Below, piece after piece: positions 9,185 through 61,987 of a stretch of DNA of 64,000 nt. The DNA lies in the IMG/VR virus record IMGVR_UViG_3300025875_000010, positions 1 through 64,000 of that record. One strand, 5' to 3'. Below the pieces are notes generated by a model. That model did no database searches. It was not told where the DNA came from and was given only the letters and a program-made list of their open reading frames with translations. Both the position numbers and the translations under genes were made by a program. Source of the DNA: a virus. Its lineage: Duplodnaviria > Caudoviricetes. Position 1 is the first letter of the stretch. Each line of letters starts with the position of its first letter.

Positions 9185-12100
9185 CCTTCATCCTTTCTAA
9201 TTCAATATCTACTACTGCACCTTCGGTGCATTTCTCTTGTGCCTTCTTAAAAACCTTGTCAAATACAATCACACTGGTCAAGTTCTTCTGATTATCAGCT
9301 ACGATCATATTAGCAAAGTTCTTACCTGCCTTGCTCTTGCGTGGATTGAACCACACTACCTTACGCATGCTGTCTGGCATATCTGGATAATCTAACTCGT
9401 ATAAATACTTGACAAATAAATCGCTCTTGTTCTCAATCAAATCATCGTCTTTGCAGTACCGGGCGATCCGGTTGTCAGCCACAAGAAACACATGCAGGCC
9501 GTTGGTAATCTCGGTATCAATGTCGGTGAAAATACCAACGTTTCCGGTGCTATCCAGAATGTCTACACGAGCCCAAGTGTCGCGGCGCATAATATCACGC
9601 ACCATGCCTCGGATCAAGTATACACCCTTCTCGTCGTAGCCTTCGGCAACAATATTACCTTCGTCATCTTTTGATTCTTTAATAGGAGTCAATTGGCTTC
9701 TAACGACCGGCGGAACTGAGCCTAGATCGAACTCTGGAATTCCCAAGAACTCATAGAAGTTATTACGCTCTCTTCCGTGCAATGAGTTATCTTCAAAGCA
9801 AGCGCCACCAATAGCATTCAGACCGGTCAGGGCTGTCACCCTCAGTCCGTTACCCTTAACAGCAACGTAATCTGCTAACTCTTGATAGTTGGCGTAAGGT
9901 GCCCTGTCGGCCAACTTAGCTCCGGTAATGTTAGAGATACCCTTGACGTTAGACAATCCCATGCGAATATCATCTCCCTCAATGCTGAACTTCACCTTAG
10001 AGCGGTTGACGTGAGGCAAAAGCACCTTCATGCCAAGGCGCTTGGTCTCAATCAAATAATCAGTGATCGAATCCTTATCGCCCTCATTGTTCAACATAGA
10101 AACCATATACTCCTTTGGGTAGTAACGCTTAAGCCACGCCGTCCAGAATGACACCTTCGAATAAGCTACAGAGTGCGACAGGTTGAACTGATATGAAGCC
10201 GTTTCTTCAATAGAGTTCCATAGGAAGTCAGCAGTTTCTTGACCAACCTTGTCCTTTGCACCGGCCACAAATGCATCCTTGTATTCTGCCAAAAGCTTAA
10301 CGTCCTGCTTCTTTGCAGTGACCTTACGAATCTTGTTAGCCATGCTCATTCCCATACCGGCCAGGTCCGAGACCAGTCGCATTGACTGTTCCTGGTAAAT
10401 AGGTAGGTAGAAGGTTTCCTCCATATACTTATCAACCAATGGGTGAACCTTTGTGGCCTTCTCCTTACCTGCCTTACGCTTTAGATAGGAGTTACCAAAG
10501 ACGTTCATGGCACCGGGTCGAATCAGGGCATTGGATACCGCCAAGTCATTAAATGAGTCAACTTTCATTCTCATCAACAGTTTAGTATATGGCGTAGCCT
10601 CACACTGGAATACTCCCTTTGTGTTACCTTCGGCCAACATCTTGTAAACGTTCTGATCCTCTAGGTCAATCTTGTTGAGAACAACATCGATGTTGTGACG
10701 CTCCTTAATAAGCTTGATAGTGTCAGCGATTACGGCCAAAGTCTTTAGACCCAGGAAGTCGAACTTGATCAAACCAATGTCAGCGGCCTGGTTCATATCG
10801 GCTGCCAATACAGCAATGCGTGGACCCTGCTTGTCGCTGGGGTTGGTGGCAGTCTGGATTGGGGCAACGTCAGATAGGCTCATCTTACTCATGACGATAC
10901 CGGCAGCGTGCATTCCCTCGCCACGAATGCGGCCGCGCAATTCACCGGCCAGGTTCATGACCTCAGGATACTTATCGTTGAATTCCTTGCCCTGCGGAGA
11001 CTCTACGAAGATATCGAAGAAGTCGTGGTCCGGTGGGGCATTAACATTCTTGGTCGCCTTGTTGACCTCAGACATTGGAACGCGGAATACGCGCGCTGCA
11101 TCCTTGATGACATTCTTATCCTTGAAGTAGTTGAAAGTTGCAATTGATGCAACGTTCTTGAACTTCCTACGAAGGTATTCCTTTACCTCGTCACGACGCT
11201 TATCCTCAAAATCCATATCAATATCGGGATAGTCGTCACGCTCGGGGTCGATAAAACGGAAGAACAGTAGTCCATATTCGATAGGATCAATGTCAGTAAT
11301 ATCTAGCACGTAGTTGGCTAGTGATCCTGTACCCGATCCACGACCCGGCCCCACCATGATTCCCTTATTTTTAGCCCACTGTACCGCATCGGCAACAATG
11401 AGAAAGTAGGTGGAGAACTTCTTCATCTGGATAATTTCTAGTTCTTCGGTTAGGCGATCCTCATACTTCTTAATGCCATCTAGACCGCGCTTCCTCATGC
11501 CTTCGCGGCACTTCTGTTCTAGAATCTCATCAGGATCCTCGCCCTTTGGCTGAGGTAAAAGATCAAGCTCCTGGTGGTACGGATACTCACCGACAGAATC
11601 GGCAACACGCAAAGTGTTCTCATAAATGTCGGTACGGTCGATGCCCTGCTTAGCAAAGGACAGCATGTGCTGCTCTGCCGTGTGCAGGAATAGTCCAAAA
11701 TGCTCAAAGGTCATAGTGCGGTCGGGGTACAGATAGTTGTACCTTTCAAGCATATCCATCTTCTGAGACTTACTGTAATCGAAGTCCAGGCTAGAACTCT
11801 TCTTTGGATTTGTGGATAGGATCAGCAGAGCCTCTTCAATCCACAAATCTTCCTCACGCGCGTAGTGGCAGTCACTCGTTGCCACGGCAGGAATCTGCAA
11901 GCGGTCAGCAATCTCTAGAAGCGCCTTATTTAGCTCCTGTGGGTTGTGACCCTGAACTTCAATGTAGAGCCGGCCTGGGGCGATCCTGTATAGGTTCTTA
12001 GCGTGGTCGATTGCTGTTTGCATATCCCCGCGCTCGATTGCCTTAGCCAGAAGGCCAGAAAGACAACCTGAGGTGATTACCAATCCCTCGTTATACTCTT

Positions 12101-56953: not shown

Positions 56954-56981
56954 ATATTAACACAACCATTGTTATTGTCAA
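56954..56981 (-). promoter_or_regulatory. Leaderless promoter of the portal operon
   Basis: TTGACA-N16-TAATAT-N6-ATG(56947), with TG extension. Confidence 0.72.
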
Positions 56982-56996
56982 ACCAATGACCAGCTT

Positions 56997-58553
56997 TTAG
57001 CTTTGTCCAGGTATAAATGACCAAGTTTGCGCATAGAATGAAACTGGTGAAGATGATTCTGTCACATTCACTCCAGAACTATCATTAACTCTTAGAATTG
57101 GTGACCCTACATTAGACTTATATAAATTAAGAGCTTGTGCAGCCGTCATCTCATAATCATAGGTAGCTAAATGACCAACGGTTACATCAAGCATTTCTGT
57201 ACCGGTCAAATTACCACCAATTCGAAACTTGCTGTCATTAGGAGTAGTAAGAACAAAAATCCAATGAGCCCACTGATCCAATTGTTGCGCTGTCGCGCTT
57301 GTGAAGGGCTGTCCATTTCTGTAAGCAGTCATTCCTACGGCTGAAACATTGCCGCCATCTACTTTGACATAACTAGTTCCAGTATTTCCAATAAAAAAGC
57401 CAGAATTATCATCAAGCTTGGCCCACATTTCAACTGTGCCAATAGTGTTGGCTTCATCCTGTTGAATTTCCAAGTAACCATTTCTAATAACAGCGCCCCA
57501 GGTGCTCAGATAGTCTAATGGATTAGGTGTTTCATAATCCATTAGAACAGATTTAAATGCCAAATTTCTCGAACCACTAGTTGGCGTTATTAATCTATCG
57601 TTAAGTATCAACACAGTTAACGAATCAACCCATCCTTCTTCTGGAAGATCAAACCTTAATAGCAAGTTAACATCTGTAGCGTCCTCTAAAACAATGGCTC
57701 CATTCATTACCGGAGTCCATGTAATATTATCAGTAGAATACGAAAGAACAGCTTTAAATCCTTGATAAGTTAAAGACACACCGGCAATCGTATCGGATAT
57801 CATCGATGATACTGGCACCATGCCCATCCACGTTCCGCCGCCATCGTTGGCTATCATTCTAGTTCCCATAATACCAACACCACTTGTAAAGAACTGATCC
57901 CAATTTGTATAGTCAAAAACAACAGTAGAATAAATGTCAGAGTCTCGATTCATCAACGTCCATGTTGTAGCTCCATTGGCAGATGCCGTCTGCTCGGGGG
58001 CTCTTACGGCCTTACCCCACTCGTAGTGCTGGCCTACTTCTCTTGCAGACAAACCTCTAGCATAGAGCGCAACGCTATCATAAATAGCAGACCCCGTACC
58101 ACCATTAATTCGAATTGAACCTGAGGTAGAAGTAAAGGGAGATAAAAGTAAATCTAAAGATGCTACCAAGGTTGCATCAATATATAGCTCGGCCTGCGTA
58201 GGGCGATAAATCATAGCCACATAAAAAGACTTACTATTGTTAGGAGTCCATGATGTTTCTACCGTACCGGCATCTTGCTTTATCCTTAAAATGAAGTCTG
58301 TTCCATTCCAAAGCACGCCCTCTCCAGTATGACCAAGTACAACAACTTCACCGGTATTTGTCATCGGCATAAACCAAGCTTCAAGTGTAAAAGAAATCGC
58401 TTCGTATCCCTGATTGTAAGGCTCAAAACTAATGTTATCTGATGCACTGATAAGTGTTGATGATCCTGAACCGGCCACTAACGGCGGGTTCGATCCATCC
58501 AACGTACGAAACGTATGCGGATTACTACTCATCACTTCTAACTCGTAGTTCAT
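56997..58553 (-). CDS. LamG/ConA-like lectin-domain protein (probable virion component)
   Basis: SFTLEAWF...LYIDA...DSVALYARGLSAREVGQHY; second unit TVEMW...WAHW...LYKS. Confidence 0.72.
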   Translation of the reverse strand: MNYELEVMSSNPHTFRTLDGSNPPLVAGSGSSTLISASDNISFEPYNQGYEAISFTLEAWFMPMTNTGEVVVLGHTGEGVLWNGTDFILRIKQDAGTVETSWTPNNSKSFYVAMIYRPTQAELYIDATLVASLDLLLSPFTSTSGSIRINGGTGSAIYDSVALYARGLSAREVGQHYEWGKAVRAPEQTASANGATTWTLMNRDSDIYSTVVFDYTNWDQFFTSGVGIMGTRMIANDGGGTWMGMVPVSSMISDTIAGVSLTYQGFKAVLSYSTDNITWTPVMNGAIVLEDATDVNLLLRFDLPEEGWVDSLTVLILNDRLITPTSGSRNLAFKSVLMDYETPNPLDYLSTWGAVIRNGYLEIQQDEANTIGTVEMWAKLDDNSGFFIGNTGTSYVKVDGGNVSAVGMTAYRNGQPFTSATAQQLDQWAHWIFVLTTPNDSKFRIGGNLTGTEMLDVTVGHLATYDYEMTAAQALNLYKSNVGSPILRVNDSSGVNVTESSSPVSFYAQTWSFIPGQS

Positions 58554-58559
58554 AAATTA

Positions 58560-58588
58560 AGTATAGTCTTAGTCACCCAAAAAAGCAA
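58560..58588 (-). promoter_or_regulatory. Leaderless promoter whose -35 lies in a terminator U-tract
   Basis: TTGCTT-N17-TATACT-N6-ATG(58553). Confidence 0.78.
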
Positions 58589-58612
58589 AAACCCCGAACT
58601 AAAGTCCGGGGT
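58579..58612 (-). terminator. Rho-independent terminator
   Basis: ACCCCGGAC-TTTA-GTTCGGGGT-TTTTGCTTTTTT. Confidence 0.85.
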
Positions 58613-58727
58613 CATGCTGTAACTAACATTTCCATCCTAAGGTGTTCGGGAACTCTTGCGAAATTCAGGCACGAACGCCGTTAACAACTCTCATCTGTAT
58701 CGGCCCACAAGCCGCACCCGAGGTTGT
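58579..58727 (-). ncRNA. Candidate structured small RNA (~150 nt)
   Basis: Bounded by a consensus promoter and an intrinsic terminator; two foldable domains including a GCAA tetraloop; only 7-9 codon ORFs without an SD. Confidence 0.5.
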
Positions 58728-58733
58728 GGTTAT

Positions 58734-58762
58734 ATTATAGCACATCATTTAGCGTCTGTAAA
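58734..58762 (-). promoter_or_regulatory. Strong sigma-A promoter at the end of the endolysin gene
   Basis: TTTACA-N17-TATAAT with TG extension. Confidence 0.75.
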
Positions 58763-59686
58763 AGTGCCATCAGCCAATAGAACTAGTCTACCTTTTTCAA
58801 ACTTCTGTTCAATTAGACCGTCCTCTTCACGCTTATATTCAGCACTCGTTGGGTAACCAAGACGACCATTCTCCCAACCAGTTGATGCATAGTAATTAAG
58901 GAATGCACCGTGAATATCCCAGGCTCCGGTCTTTGGAGACCAGTAAATTGCCCAACCGGACGCGAAGTGGCTAGAATGTCCAACTCCATGAGTCAACTCA
59001 TCGCTCGTAGGAAATCCAGTAGTTAGCTCACTACCAATTACACGCCAACGCTTTAGAATTTCTCCATGAACTTCGTGGGCTGTGCCCTTATCAACATTTG
59101 GATGCCAATAAATAGCTCCATTAGTAAACTCCTGCCAACGACCAGCCTTATCTAATGTTGAAACTTCTGGACCGTCCGGCTGACCTACGATTCCCTTTGT
59201 ACGGTCATAAGCCACCCTGATGGCTCCTACAATTGGGAACTTGAACTGTGGAACTACTGGTTGTGCTGGGCCACCTAGATTCCAGGCCGCCTTGCTATCG
59301 AAACCGGCGCGGTTCAGACTAAACGATACATGGAAGTGCTTATCGTGTGGATTACTTCCGTTATATGCTCTCCATGTTCTAAAATCAGGACTAGTAATTC
59401 TGCGGTTGAAGATAATGTATCCTCCACCGGTCAATCTTGGATCACCGGCTGCGCCCTTCTTGCGTAATTCTTCAACAATCCAAGCCGCGTCAATGCCGTC
59501 CTTGTCAACATCGCGCGCACGTACAACACCCTGCCCAGCAATAATTACCCAAGGATTGTGGTCGGAATCTCTAGATGCGTGAGCAGCATCACCAATTGTT
59601 CCATCTGATGCCTTGTCTCGTTTAGGCCAACGAACATTAATTTCATCTACCAGAGCAATGCTGGCATTACAATTACGCCACGTCAC
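58745..59686 (-). CDS. Endolysin: M15-like Zn peptidase domain plus LGFP repeats
   Basis: GDAAH...SDHNP...ARDVD...YIIFNRRI...NPHDKHFHVS; GFPTSDE and LGYPTSAE LGFP repeats; GTG start. Confidence 0.85.
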   Translation of the reverse strand: MTWRNCNASIALVDEINVRWPKRDKASDGTIGDAAHASRDSDHNPWVIIAGQGVVRARDVDKDGIDAAWIVEELRKKGAAGDPRLTGGGYIIFNRRITSPDFRTWRAYNGSNPHDKHFHVSFSLNRAGFDSKAAWNLGGPAQPVVPQFKFPIVGAIRVAYDRTKGIVGQPDGPEVSTLDKAGRWQEFTNGAIYWHPNVDKGTAHEVHGEILKRWRVIGSELTTGFPTSDELTHGVGHSSHFASGWAIYWSPKTGAWDIHGAFLNYYASTGWENGRLGYPTSAEYKREEDGLIEQKFEKGRLVLLADGTFTDAK

Positions 59687-59790
59687 TTATCATCATCGGG
59701 ATTAGTGGGAGCGTCTGCTTCCTCACCTGCGTAAACCCAGGGATCGGAGTGATCCTGCTCCCCGGCCGTCCTTGCCTTTGGTTCTGTCAT
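59683..59790 (-). CDS. 35-aa acidic peptide coupled to the endolysin (not in ORF track)
   Basis: AAAGGAGG RBS; MTEPKARTAGEQDHSDPWVYAGEEADAPTNPDDDK; its TGA overlaps the lysin GTG. Confidence 0.7.
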   Translation of the reverse strand: MTEPKARTAGEQDHSDPWVYAGEEADAPTNPDDDK

Positions 59791-59813
59791 ATTTATCCCC
59801 TCCTTTCTAGATT

Positions 59814-59842
59814 AGTATGCTCCTTTCGTTGCTAAAAAGCAA
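59814..59842 (-). promoter_or_regulatory. Promoter of the lysin operon
   Basis: TTGCTT-N17-CATACT; the -35 lies in the terminator tail. Confidence 0.68.
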
Positions 59843-59875
59843 ATGACCCAGCCTCGGAGTAGAAGGCTGGGTCAT
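59835..59875 (-). terminator. Terminator after the nrdJ operon
   Basis: ATGACCCAGCCT-N9-AGGCTGGGTCAT, a perfect 12-bp stem, followed by TTGCTTTTT. Confidence 0.82.
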
Positions 59876-59879
59876 CGAC

Positions 59880-60044
59880 TTATTCTGTTTTTTCTCTTCC
59901 ATCTAAAGAATGATGGAGAATATGCCATCCAATTGAGCCATCGTCTCTCTTTACAGGCTCTGTTGTGGGCCCGCAAATACATTCATCATTGTTAGTGTTA
60001 TGGTCCACAAGATCATTAACTGGATAAGTATGAACTGCTGTCAT
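59880..60044 (-). CDS. 54-aa His/Cys-rich protein (not in ORF track)
   Basis: MTAVHTYPVNDLVDHNTNNDECICGPTTEPVKRDDGSIGWHILHHSLDGREKTE; TAATG-coupled to nrdJ. Confidence 0.72.
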   Translation of the reverse strand: MTAVHTYPVNDLVDHNTNNDECICGPTTEPVKRDDGSIGWHILHHSLDGREKTE

Positions 60045-61987
60045 TAGTTTGCTGAGCCTACAAGCTCACATTGACCTGAAACACAACTTAGCATCTGCGT
60101 TCCAGTAGTGTTATCTTCCTTCTCATATAGTGGAAGGATAGACCAATTAACGTGTGCTGGCATATCTGCAACAAACTGCTTGTAACCGGACTCGTCGGTG
60201 TCCTGGTATGGTGCTTGCTGATATGTACCGGCATCATATGGAAGAAAACTGATTCCACCAACGATATCCCAGTTTTTGTAAACCCAGTGGCTTACCTCAA
60301 TCCATTCCTCTTCACGCACGTTGACGGTGATAGAAGGATTATGCTCGGTCCAGTGCATCTTGTACACCTTCCAGAACTCTAAGTGATCAATAGCAGTTAA
60401 CTCATTTCTGGTGACCGCGCCTACCGGTGCCTTCTGTGGGAAGTAGAAGACAGTTGTACTGTCAGGTGCCATTAGGTCAGGCTCATTAGGAATACCGGCG
60501 TCATTCATGAATGATGTTAGCGGGTCCTTGTTGTCCTGACGGACGGAGCGAATGTAATAGTCATTGTGCCACGGGTGCATTCCTGACGAGGTGCCGGTAA
60601 GCTGAGAAACTGTTCCGCTAGGCTTGACAGTTGTGATCGCCGTTGAGCGATTGATTCCCATTGCATCTGCCACGCGGGCATTAACTTCAATCGTCCGCTC
60701 TCGTAGAGAGTCCAATGCGGAAGCCAAGCGGTCAAGCCCTTGTCGGCCAGACGTAAGCTTGTTTCCAAACTGTCCGGTGAGTGAAACTCCAAGAAGCCTT
60801 TCCTCTTCGCAGTTATCTCTCCAAATCTTTCTAAGATACTTGAAATTGGTGAAGCTGGCCTGAATGGTTCCCAAAATGGTTGCAATTTCTGCCTTCTCAA
60901 GTAGTGCCTCCTCCGTATCGCTTTCCTCGACAATAATTTCAGTTAAGTTACAGAACTGATACGGACGCAAAGAAATCTCTCCACATGGATTTGTTCCACC
61001 CAATAGAGAACCGTCGCGTCGCGGTGCGAATGCAGCCTTCTTCATGTTTTCCATGTTTACGATACCGCGCTCGCCTGAACCGGACTCGTATAGATTCTGC
61101 CATTCGTGCATAAACTCACCGATGCTTGGCTTCTTGTAATGTGCTGCGGAGTTGTTAGCTAGACGACGATATGGAGTTGCCTCCCACCACGCACCGCTCT
61201 TTGCCTTAGCCATATCATAATCGTCCAAGTCCTGCAAACTGATCAGAGCAGAACGGCGCACACCACCCACGACAACCACGTCCCCAATCTTGCACATAAT
61301 GTCATGGCACTCAAGGCTTGTAAGCTTTCTTCCTGCTGCTTTCTTGAATGTAGCGATAGCAAAGTCAAATAGATCGACAAGTGGTTGTGGTCCCGATGAG
61401 CGACCTCCAAATGTCTTAAGCTTTGCTCCTGCTGGACGAAGCGCTGTAATATCAATTGCAGGAATCTGTCCAACATAAAGCATGGCAATAAGTTCGCGTA
61501 GCGCGCGTGCCCAACCTTCCTTAGAGTCCTGTACGTTGATTACTGTCTTTGTGTATTCGAAGTGCTCGTTTACAACCGGCAATCTGCTGGTGTACTTGCG
61601 CTCTGCGCTGAATCCTAAACCGGTACCGTTCATCAAAATGTACAGCGCTTCATCAAATGATCGTGGACTGTCTACCGGAATAAAGCTACAGTTATATCCT
61701 GCAACGTGTGAGCGGTCTAGTGCTGGTCCTGCCGTCATCAATGCACGCATCGAAGGCATGACTTTGTGGTTCAAAATTGCTGAGTGAATGCGATCCCATT
61801 CGTCCTCAGTTACTACGTTTGGATAGCTCTTATCCATGTGGTCATGCATGTAGTTCACATAACGGTTAACTGTCTCGTGCCAGGTCTCACGACGACCAAT
61901 ATTGTCGTCCCACCTAGCATAACGAGACACGGCAATAAATGCCTTATACGGGTCTGTTAGAGCACCCGTATCATCAATAATACTCAA
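60044..61987 (-). CDS. nrdJ: Class II (adenosylcobalamin-dependent) ribonucleotide reductase, monomeric RTPR type
   Basis: SRYARW...RETW; PSMR; YNCSF; GTNPCGEI; TVKPSGTVS; WTEHNPS; C-terminal CVSGQC; TTG start. Confidence 0.95.
   Translation of the reverse strand: MSIIDDTGALTDPYKAFIAVSRYARWDDNIGRRETWHETVNRYVNYMHDHMDKSYPNVVTEDEWDRIHSAILNHKVMPSMRALMTAGPALDRSHVAGYNCSFIPVDSPRSFDEALYILMNGTGLGFSAERKYTSRLPVVNEHFEYTKTVINVQDSKEGWARALRELIAMLYVGQIPAIDITALRPAGAKLKTFGGRSSGPQPLVDLFDFAIATFKKAAGRKLTSLECHDIMCKIGDVVVVGGVRRSALISLQDLDDYDMAKAKSGAWWEATPYRRLANNSAAHYKKPSIGEFMHEWQNLYESGSGERGIVNMENMKKAAFAPRRDGSLLGGTNPCGEISLRPYQFCNLTEIIVEESDTEEALLEKAEIATILGTIQASFTNFKYLRKIWRDNCEEERLLGVSLTGQFGNKLTSGRQGLDRLASALDSLRERTIEVNARVADAMGINRSTAITTVKPSGTVSQLTGTSSGMHPWHNDYYIRSVRQDNKDPLTSFMNDAGIPNEPDLMAPDSTTVFYFPQKAPVGAVTRNELTAIDHLEFWKVYKMHWTEHNPSITVNVREEEWIEVSHWVYKNWDIVGGISFLPYDAGTYQQAPYQDTDESGYKQFVADMPAHVNWSILPLYEKEDNTTGTQMLSCVSGQCELVGSAN

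Follow-up and report, generated by a model that had tools for sequence, protein, structure and literature searches.

Promoter, terminator and conserved fold of a candidate small RNA behind the endolysin gene of Stanwilliamsviridae-like actinophages

The gap between the endolysin gene and the first structural gene in the 64,000-nt stretch of phage DNA analysed here (the window; taken from a 77-kb IMG/VR virus record that is ∼60% complete) raises the question of whether it holds a gene of its own, one whose product is an RNA. The first reading placed in this gap a candidate novel small RNA that is structured and has a promoter and a terminator to itself, and this reading is supported by the comparisons below. 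The unit of promoter, RNA element and terminator is real and has the stated coordinates; it lies on the minus strand, as do all the genes around it; from its sequence signals, we infer that the RNA is expressed.

The coordinates of the unit and its surroundings are collected in Table 1. The 518-aa gene is followed by a gene for a 112-aa protein and then by the portal, protease and capsid genes. The portal protein of the window shares 54–58% identity with its counterparts in Stanwilliamsviridae phages of Streptomyces (clusters BE and BK, ∼130 kb), and the 518-aa protein is ∼25% identical to its homolog in that family. The phages Jay2Jay and Blueeyedbeauty keep the gene order of the window, which is reductase, (HNH), endolysin, gap, a ∼570-aa protein, a small protein and portal. 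The interval between the reductase and the lysin holds two small ORFs (59683–60044, minus strand), and after the terminator in this interval, ahead of the lysin region, there is a TTGCTT-17-CATACT sequence (59800–59842, minus strand) with the layout of the 518-aa gene's promoter.

Table 1. Features of the endolysin–structural gene junction in the window, and genes inserted at the same junction in relatives
Feature	Position	Strand	Remarks
Class II ribonucleotide reductase	60044–61987	minus	
54-aa ORF	59880–60044	minus	Cys/His-rich
Strong terminator	59876–59842	minus	in the reductase–lysin interval
35-aa ORF	59683–59790	minus	acidic; strong SD; overlaps the lysin GTG start
Endolysin with LGFP repeats	58745–59686	minus	by synteny with the annotated endolysins of Jay2Jay and Blueeyedbeauty
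−35 hexamer TTTACA of the small-RNA promoter	58757–58762	minus	within the last endolysin codons
Extended −10 TGcTATAAT of the small-RNA promoter	58734–58742	minus	TG 58742–58741; TATAAT 58739–58734
Predicted small RNA, ∼145–148 nt	58580–58727	minus	A58727 to U tract; from promoter register and terminator, and covariance model match; ends predicted
P1, 5′ strand ACAACCUC	58720–58727	minus	begins at the predicted +1
Inner hairpin CGGCU-UGUG-GGCCG	58701–58714	minus	RNAalifold, 7 clade-B sequences
P1, 3′ strand GAG(A)GUUGU	58684–58692	minus	
P2 hairpin GCG-UUC[GUGCCU]GAA-(UUU)-CGC	58658–58678	minus	presents the conserved GUGC (58672–58669)
Near-invariant motif CCUUAGGAUGG	58632–58642	minus	variants only GGGUG, GGAAUG, GGUUG, GG-UG
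A/U-rich linker	58619–58631	minus	conserved (G)UUAC at its end
Two-tier intrinsic terminator	58580–58618	minus	lower stem AGCA/UGCU, upper 10-bp stem, U tracts
Leaderless promoter of the 518-aa gene	58553–58588	minus	−35 TTGCTT 58588–58583; 17 nt; −10 TATACT 58565–58560
518-aa gene (ConA-like/Laminin_G_3, phrog_11584)	56997–58553	minus	first of the portal–protease–capsid block
Insertion between the RNA terminator and the 518-aa gene, ∼65-aa ORF	L025:2612–3053		closest relative
Insertion between the RNA terminator and the 518-aa gene, HNH-type endonuclease	L046:2361–2863		isolate
Insertion between the RNA terminator and the 518-aa gene, HNH-type endonuclease	L052:2415–2866		isolate

The small-RNA promoter had been described as the best-consensus promoter in the window, TTTACA-17-TGn-TATAAT, and this description is exact in sequence and position: with its 17-nt spacer, 11 of 12 consensus positions and the TG, it is the best such site both in the region and in a whole-genome scan. 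The stop codon of the endolysin gene (58747–58745) falls within the promoter spacer. The layout of the promoter is fixed with respect to the RNA, as the distance from the end of the −10 box to the first base of P1 (the 5′ helix of the RNA) is exactly 6 nt in 28/28 homologs that bear a promoter. All of these also have a −35-like hexamer, spaced by 16–18 nt and mostly by 17 nt, and 25 carry TGn. Based on the fixed 6-nt register, we put the +1 at the first base of P1, here A58727.

An intrinsic terminator had been placed ∼150 nt after the promoter; we find a strong one ∼145 nt downstream. Its G+C-rich upper stem of 10 bp (58613–58590) is followed by a U tract, and the lower stem AGCA/UGCU, with a second U tract, prolongs the terminator to ∼58580. 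The combination of GUUAC and a terminator was considered as a general form of terminator and rejected, since none of the genome's other strong terminators shows it. Similarly, the claim that no SD-led ORF lies between promoter and terminator agrees with our finding of none in this interval. The AGGAUG motif is followed by a short AUG frame that relatives do not conserve; it reads AUG-GAA-UAG in the closest relative and crosses the terminator in others.

The element was also claimed to form the 3′ UTR of the lysin mRNA. This is supported by a clade without a recognisable promoter (L006/L076, L020, L051, L059, L064 and L065), in which the RNA can be a lysin 3′ UTR only. Members of this clade have a hairpin of 7 bp across the lysin stop codon (L051:2630–2650, L020:1950–1975), with a compensatory change between GGUAUCC/GGAUACC and GGUAUUC/GAAUACC.

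The strongest argument against a chance arrangement is comparative, namely that what we read as a promoter–RNA–terminator unit is found at one site in dozens of diverged phages. The conserved site lies between the endolysin and the first structural gene, and ∼40 distinct IMG/VR sequences carry the unit there in synteny. Because a blastn search of phages with the window element gave no match, homologs were sought by motif and by portal-anchored synteny. From the motif scan and 80 portal-anchored IMG/VR loci, nhmmer yielded 38 distinct homologs, all of which sit 2.2–2.4 kb upstream of the portal gene; an additional divergent copy is found in L090/L092. When a clade-A copy was used as the blastn query, 123 Streptomyces phage records (Stanwilliamsviridae) were matched, at one place each. 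Searches with a covariance model derived from 21 clade-A sequences detect a single copy per genome in four complete relatives, and likewise one copy in the window. In Jay2Jay and Blueeyedbeauty, the post-endolysin gap contains a near-identical 65-nt sequence along with a terminator and a promoter that overlaps the lysin 3′ end; the window has the terminator, as well as the boxes UUCGUGCC and CUUAGGAUGG, in common with this gap.

Copies beyond this set of phages were sought with pattern scans. The scan of 185,579 species genomes (one per prokaryotic species) found no real host or prophage copy; its sole match, inside coding-like sequence of an archaeal MAG, was rejected as due to chance. The viral and metagenome scans found no distinct new member of the window's clade, as one extra contig duplicates a known sequence and the other matches occur by chance.

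Comparison of the junction among relatives indicates what the element stays with and what it does without. The type of lysin gene is swapped between clades (LGFP, LysM and others) while the RNA core is unchanged, and where genes have been inserted downstream (Table 1), the RNA is still beside the lysin stop codon. In L025 and L046, the inserted gene is closed by a duplicate of the ‘(G/A)UUAC + terminator’ module, resembling the one in the RNA; the inserted gene of L052 has a different short terminator at its end. In L104, a distant relative, the RNA element is absent, and the terminator and the promoter of the next gene are kept. In L077, L078, L095 and L100, there is no RNA element, and the upstream gene runs straight to the promoter of the next gene.

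If the element were only a 3′-UTR module of the endolysin gene, one that stabilises or insulates the lysin mRNA and has no function in trans, its promoter would be incidental or a local booster. The constant position of the element against the lysin stop codon despite downstream insertions, the clade that lacks a promoter and the failure of our target searches (below) to find a target all fit such a module. However, a near-consensus promoter is held at the fixed register to P1 in all 28 promoter-bearing homologs, next to very divergent lysins, and the RNA core stays when the lysin gene is exchanged. Moreover, a plain terminator is enough in L104, and a stabiliser needs no invariant non-helical sequence. 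We therefore regard a role confined to the 3′ UTR as improbable.

The structure of the RNA is conserved in its main helices. The folding energy of the window RNA is −50.8 kcal/mol, compared to −41.5 ± 3.9 kcal/mol for shuffled sequences (z = −2.4). RNAalifold (clade A; the window's clade) predicts P1 starting from the +1, the inner hairpin and the two-tier terminator. P1 has compensatory variants (ACAGCC/GGUUGU, ACGACC/GGUCGU, ACAGCU/AGCUGU and ACAGG/CCUGU). The inner hairpin is an invariant insertion in the window's clade, and shows no covariation because of this invariance; similarly, the small hairpin P1a of clade A is invariant and thus uninformative either way. The 5′ domain varies between clades. 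The hairpin with the GUG(C) loop is found in all clades, on covarying stems that include GCGCUG/CAGCGC, CAAUUC/GAAUUG, CCAUUG/CAGUGG and UAG..CUA. Single-sequence folds of diverse relatives independently give the P1 domain, the GUG(C) hairpin, an open CUUAGGAUG–linker segment and the terminator.

Covariation was counted in a covariance-model alignment of 39 distinct rows. Standard pairs make up 91.7% of the cells, compared to 71% after shuffling and 38–49% in slid controls, and 26 of 27 pairs are changed on both sides (14.9 shuffled; 11–18 in slid controls), although these counts, like those per helix below, are biased towards structure because the alignment was fitted to the model. A second covariance model had taken in four spurious terminator matches from the first round and did not enter the counts; the per-helix recount was made with the four rows taken out. 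In this recount, double-change cells number 20 in P1 (shuffled mean 2.4), 30 in P2 (7.9), 38 in the lower terminator stem (9.9) and 29 in the upper terminator stem (8.0). P1, P2 and both terminator stems thus show compensatory changes in excess of shuffles. G-U pairs greatly outnumber A-C pairs (109 versus 18), which argues that the structure is that of an RNA from the gene strand, rather than of DNA or of the opposite strand.

These data bear on whether the locus is an RNA gene at all. The very high conservation of some unpaired stretches would also suit a regulatory or packaging site in the DNA, or a tiny protein-coding gene. The compensatory changes and the excess of G-U over A-C pairs, however, fit only an RNA read from one strand, and the indels, which are not multiples of three, leave no shared frame; as noted above, the short AUG frame is not conserved. 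The A/U-rich linker differs in length by 1–7 nt between homologs, and this variation, together with indels of 1–2 nt and the lack of a shared ORF, excludes coding. We consider either of these alternatives to an RNA gene highly improbable.

The fold that had first been drawn by eye agrees in part with the family structure. Its first domain, consisting of P1 and the CGGCU/GGCCG hairpin, is borne out by RNAalifold. The outer helix of its second domain and the UAAC/GUUA flank hold in the nearest relative, with compensatory changes (outer helix GGC-GUUCG/CGAAC-A-GCC, flank CUAC/GUAG and an extra G-C), but not beyond it. The inner GNRA hairpin, GAAUUUC-GCAA-GAGUUC, is found in the window only and is not a feature of the family. 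In the window, the family-wide P2 overlaps and competes with the GGCGUUCG/CGAACACC helix drawn by eye. The minimum free energy fold of the window RNA is at −49.8 kcal/mol, compared to −42.6 kcal/mol when constrained to the family consensus. In the former (58580–58727, minus strand), the 5′ region pairs over a long range with the P2 region and the CUUAGG box, a third alternative that relatives in general lack; a fold like that of the window, deviating from the family consensus, is also predicted for the close relatives L029 and L084.

Between P2 and the terminator, the invariant letters are those of CUUAGGAUG, the A/U-rich linker and UUAC. The near-invariant motif within this segment has an unpaired probability of 0.3–0.8, and is partly paired in many predicted folds. 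We noted likenesses of AGUCCGG to CR-I of RNase P and of AUGAG to the initiator tRNA loop, as well as a possible 3-bp GUG/UAC contact between loop and linker; all of these involve invariant bases and may well be fortuitous.

We compared the RNA with known families. At the gathering threshold, no model of Rfam 15 (4227 models) matches anywhere in the window. At E values up to 10, the versions of the window, L036 and Jay2Jay give only sub-threshold matches of terminator type (E 0.07–10). The original prediction had set the RNA apart from tRNA and tmRNA; consistent with this, ARAGORN finds neither in the window. A pRNA of the phi29 type (RF00044) was rejected based on the lack of an Rfam match and, by eye, of mutually complementary loops.

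A conserved folded domain placed right before a terminator also brings to mind a riboswitch- or T-box-like attenuator, in which a ligand or tRNA is sensed and the terminator is opened. Many tRNA genes are present in these phages, and the sequence UAGGAUGG...UACCG bears a loose resemblance to the T-box sequence AGGGUGGNACCGCG. We rejected this idea, as there is no Rfam match to a riboswitch or T-box at E values up to 10 and no structure that competes with the terminator: in partition functions, the terminator helix has a probability of ∼1 in the homologs, which implies that no antiterminator is conserved. In addition, the UGG varies (GGAUGAG, GGAUGUU), and a separate promoter serves the downstream gene. 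An attenuator of this kind is very unlikely.

The promoter of the downstream gene also bears on a more general question, whether the RNA acts as the leader of the late genes. The 518-aa gene begins with TATACT-taattt-ATG, in which 6 nt separate the −10 box from the start codon at 58553 and there is no SD; on sequence grounds, such an arrangement marks a leaderless mRNA transcribed from a promoter of its own. The −10 box ends 6 nt (7 nt in one case) before a start codon without an SD in 19/19 genomes, including three without the RNA, and the terminator tail overlaps with the −35 box, which reads TTGCTT here and TTGGCG or TTGGCA in other genomes. Since the leaderless promoter is present even where the RNA is absent, the RNA is not a leader of the late operon. 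Further sigma70-like promoters, several of them leaderless, occur within the structural block (for example at 56981, 51834, 43340 and 39058), and thus a single antiterminated late transcript is not required. Sigma70-like promoters with a start codon 6 nt past the −10 box are numerous, among them those at 56981, 43340, 39058, 3570 and 2100 on the minus strand and, just beyond the window, at 64845; leaderless genes appear to be common within the structural module of this phage.

A strong promoter followed immediately by a strong terminator, just upstream of the portal–protease–capsid block, could nevertheless be a transcription switch in cis, like lambda nut, HK022 put or PR′-6S-tR′, in which P1 and P2, with or without a phage protein, lead to read-through into the structural genes. 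Two adjoining stem-loop domains with a conserved single-stranded box are in keeping with such a switch, as are the strong internal terminators present in the structural region, and in the promoter-less clade it could still work on transcripts that come from the lysin gene. However, the next gene is leaderless, lacks an SD and has its own promoter in every one of the 19 genomes, and a read-through mRNA with a leader would translate it poorly. More promoters follow the internal terminators, and relatives without the RNA keep the junction of terminator and leaderless promoter. No second copy occurs in the complete genomes, unlike nutL/nutR and putL/putR, and no Q-family antiterminator (PF06530, PF03589) is found in the 77-kb record, a search bounded by its completeness and by the diversity of Q proteins. 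A late switch of the Q type in particular was rejected, based on the lack of a Q match in the ∼60% complete record and on the promoter of the downstream gene. Thus, both the cis switch and the 3′-UTR module are weakened by the downstream promoter, the register of the small-RNA promoter and the relatives with a plain terminator, and we give the switch only an outside chance.

Our best guess is that the RNA is a trans-acting small RNA of the 3′-UTR type. To the full statement, that the locus is a genuine unannotated noncoding RNA gene, of a family new in Stanwilliamsviridae-like actinophages, whose product is a stable small RNA of this type acting in trans, we give about an even chance. Host RNA polymerase would start at A58727, from the near-consensus extended −10 promoter that straddles the endolysin stop codon, and would stop ∼145 nt further on, at a terminator shared with the endolysin mRNA. 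In the predicted product, P1 would form a 5′-terminal helix domain that buries the 5′ end, and the P2 hairpin would display GUGC; the invariant and largely accessible CUUAGGAUG, the A/U-rich linker with UUAC and the long terminator hairpin would follow in that order. The invariant segment may pair with a host RNA or hold a protein, in trans. The burial of its 5′ end, the strong hairpin at its 3′ end and the near-consensus promoter of the host type give the RNA the look of a stable and abundant species, and the promoter-less clade fits the processed 3′-UTR type.

An anti-defence decoy, a lysis regulator and a packaging or structural RNA had been put forward as possible functions. We searched for targets by complementarity. 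The complement of the invariant motif, CCATCCTAAG, has no site on the sense strand of this genome, and in the four complete relatives its counts equal those of a control pattern, with no enrichment. Similarly, the unpaired region pairs no better than shuffles with the 5′ terminus of the neighbouring leaderless mRNA (z from −1.6 to +1.4). Rather than a base-pairing regulator or a leader, the RNA might be a decoy or cofactor that binds a protein through the GUGC loop, the CUUAGGAUG box and UUAC, a reading that we hold to be doubtful. Its partner could be a host factor of defence or RNA metabolism, or RNA polymerase in a put-like insulator arrangement, in which passage through the terminator would be limited to transcripts that contain the RNA. 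A decoy or cofactor RNA would, if real, represent a new class of RNA–protein interplay in actinophage infection.

The preferred reading, a small RNA of the 3′-UTR type, can be compared with known examples. Small RNAs from 3′ UTRs are of type I, with a promoter in the 3′ end of the upstream gene (DapZ, MicL), or of type II, processed from the mRNA (CpxQ). The layout here is that of this class, with the −35 box inside the lysin coding sequence, the stop codon in the spacer and a terminator shared with the lysin mRNA, and the promoter-bearing and promoter-less members of the family resemble the two types. Structured 5′ parts followed by a conserved, less structured segment near an A/U-rich stretch and the terminator are a further likeness. 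The RNA differs from those of this class in its larger size (∼110–150 nt), its two covarying helical domains and its origin in an actinobacterial phage, and its conserved motif is purine-rich (AGGAUG), and not a seed of the anti-SD type. Actinobacteria are not known to have Hfq or ProQ; in the absence of Hfq, the enterobacterial paradigm applies only loosely.

The phage systems named above have features in common with the unit, but differ in key aspects. HK022 put and lambda nut are stem-loops on the nascent RNA just downstream of a promoter, nut being a hairpin with a conserved single-stranded box. The two-stem-loop layout downstream of a promoter is a superficial likeness, as the element here is present in a single copy per genome, has no recognisable boxA and is followed at once by a strong terminator and then by an independent promoter. 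Lambda PR′-tR′ and the corresponding Stx-phage transcript StxS share with the unit a strong phage promoter and, within ∼150–200 nt of it, an intrinsic terminator close to lysis or late genes (PMC7547250); StxS, the Stx-phage form of lambda 6S RNA, indicates that a short transcript of this kind can act in trans as a small RNA (PMC7547250). Unlike in lambda, the unit follows the lysin gene instead of preceding it, a separate leaderless promoter serves the downstream genes, and no Q gene was found; moreover, the structure of this RNA covaries, whereas lambda qut is a DNA and pause signal.

No description of this RNA was found in the papers searched. Streptomyces phages and actinobacteriophages have no entry in a 2025 review of small RNAs encoded by phages (PMC12197685). 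The RNAs that it covers are likewise noncoding regulatory RNAs of phages, some of which are associated with endolysins, such as the antisense PAK_P4as15 (PMC12197685); the RNA here is sense-oriented. The small RNAs of phages that infect Actinobacteria are thus essentially uncharted, and this RNA may offer a route to how large lytic actinophages use RNA in bacteria without Hfq. The unit extends through a family of Streptomyces phages (∼130 kb), for which many cultured isolates and tractable hosts are available, and into uncultured relatives whose hosts differ. With clear covariation and invariant unpaired boxes, it is a candidate for a new RNA family entry.

The comparison would also correct annotation, in that the post-endolysin gap of >120 GenBank records would be a gene. 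Nearly all of the matched records listed carry no annotation at the position of the match. In NC_070784.1 (Streptomyces phage TunaTartare), a ‘hypothetical protein’ is annotated over the RNA element at 10582–10693; because nearly all other listed records leave this stretch without annotation, the protein is probably a mis-call.
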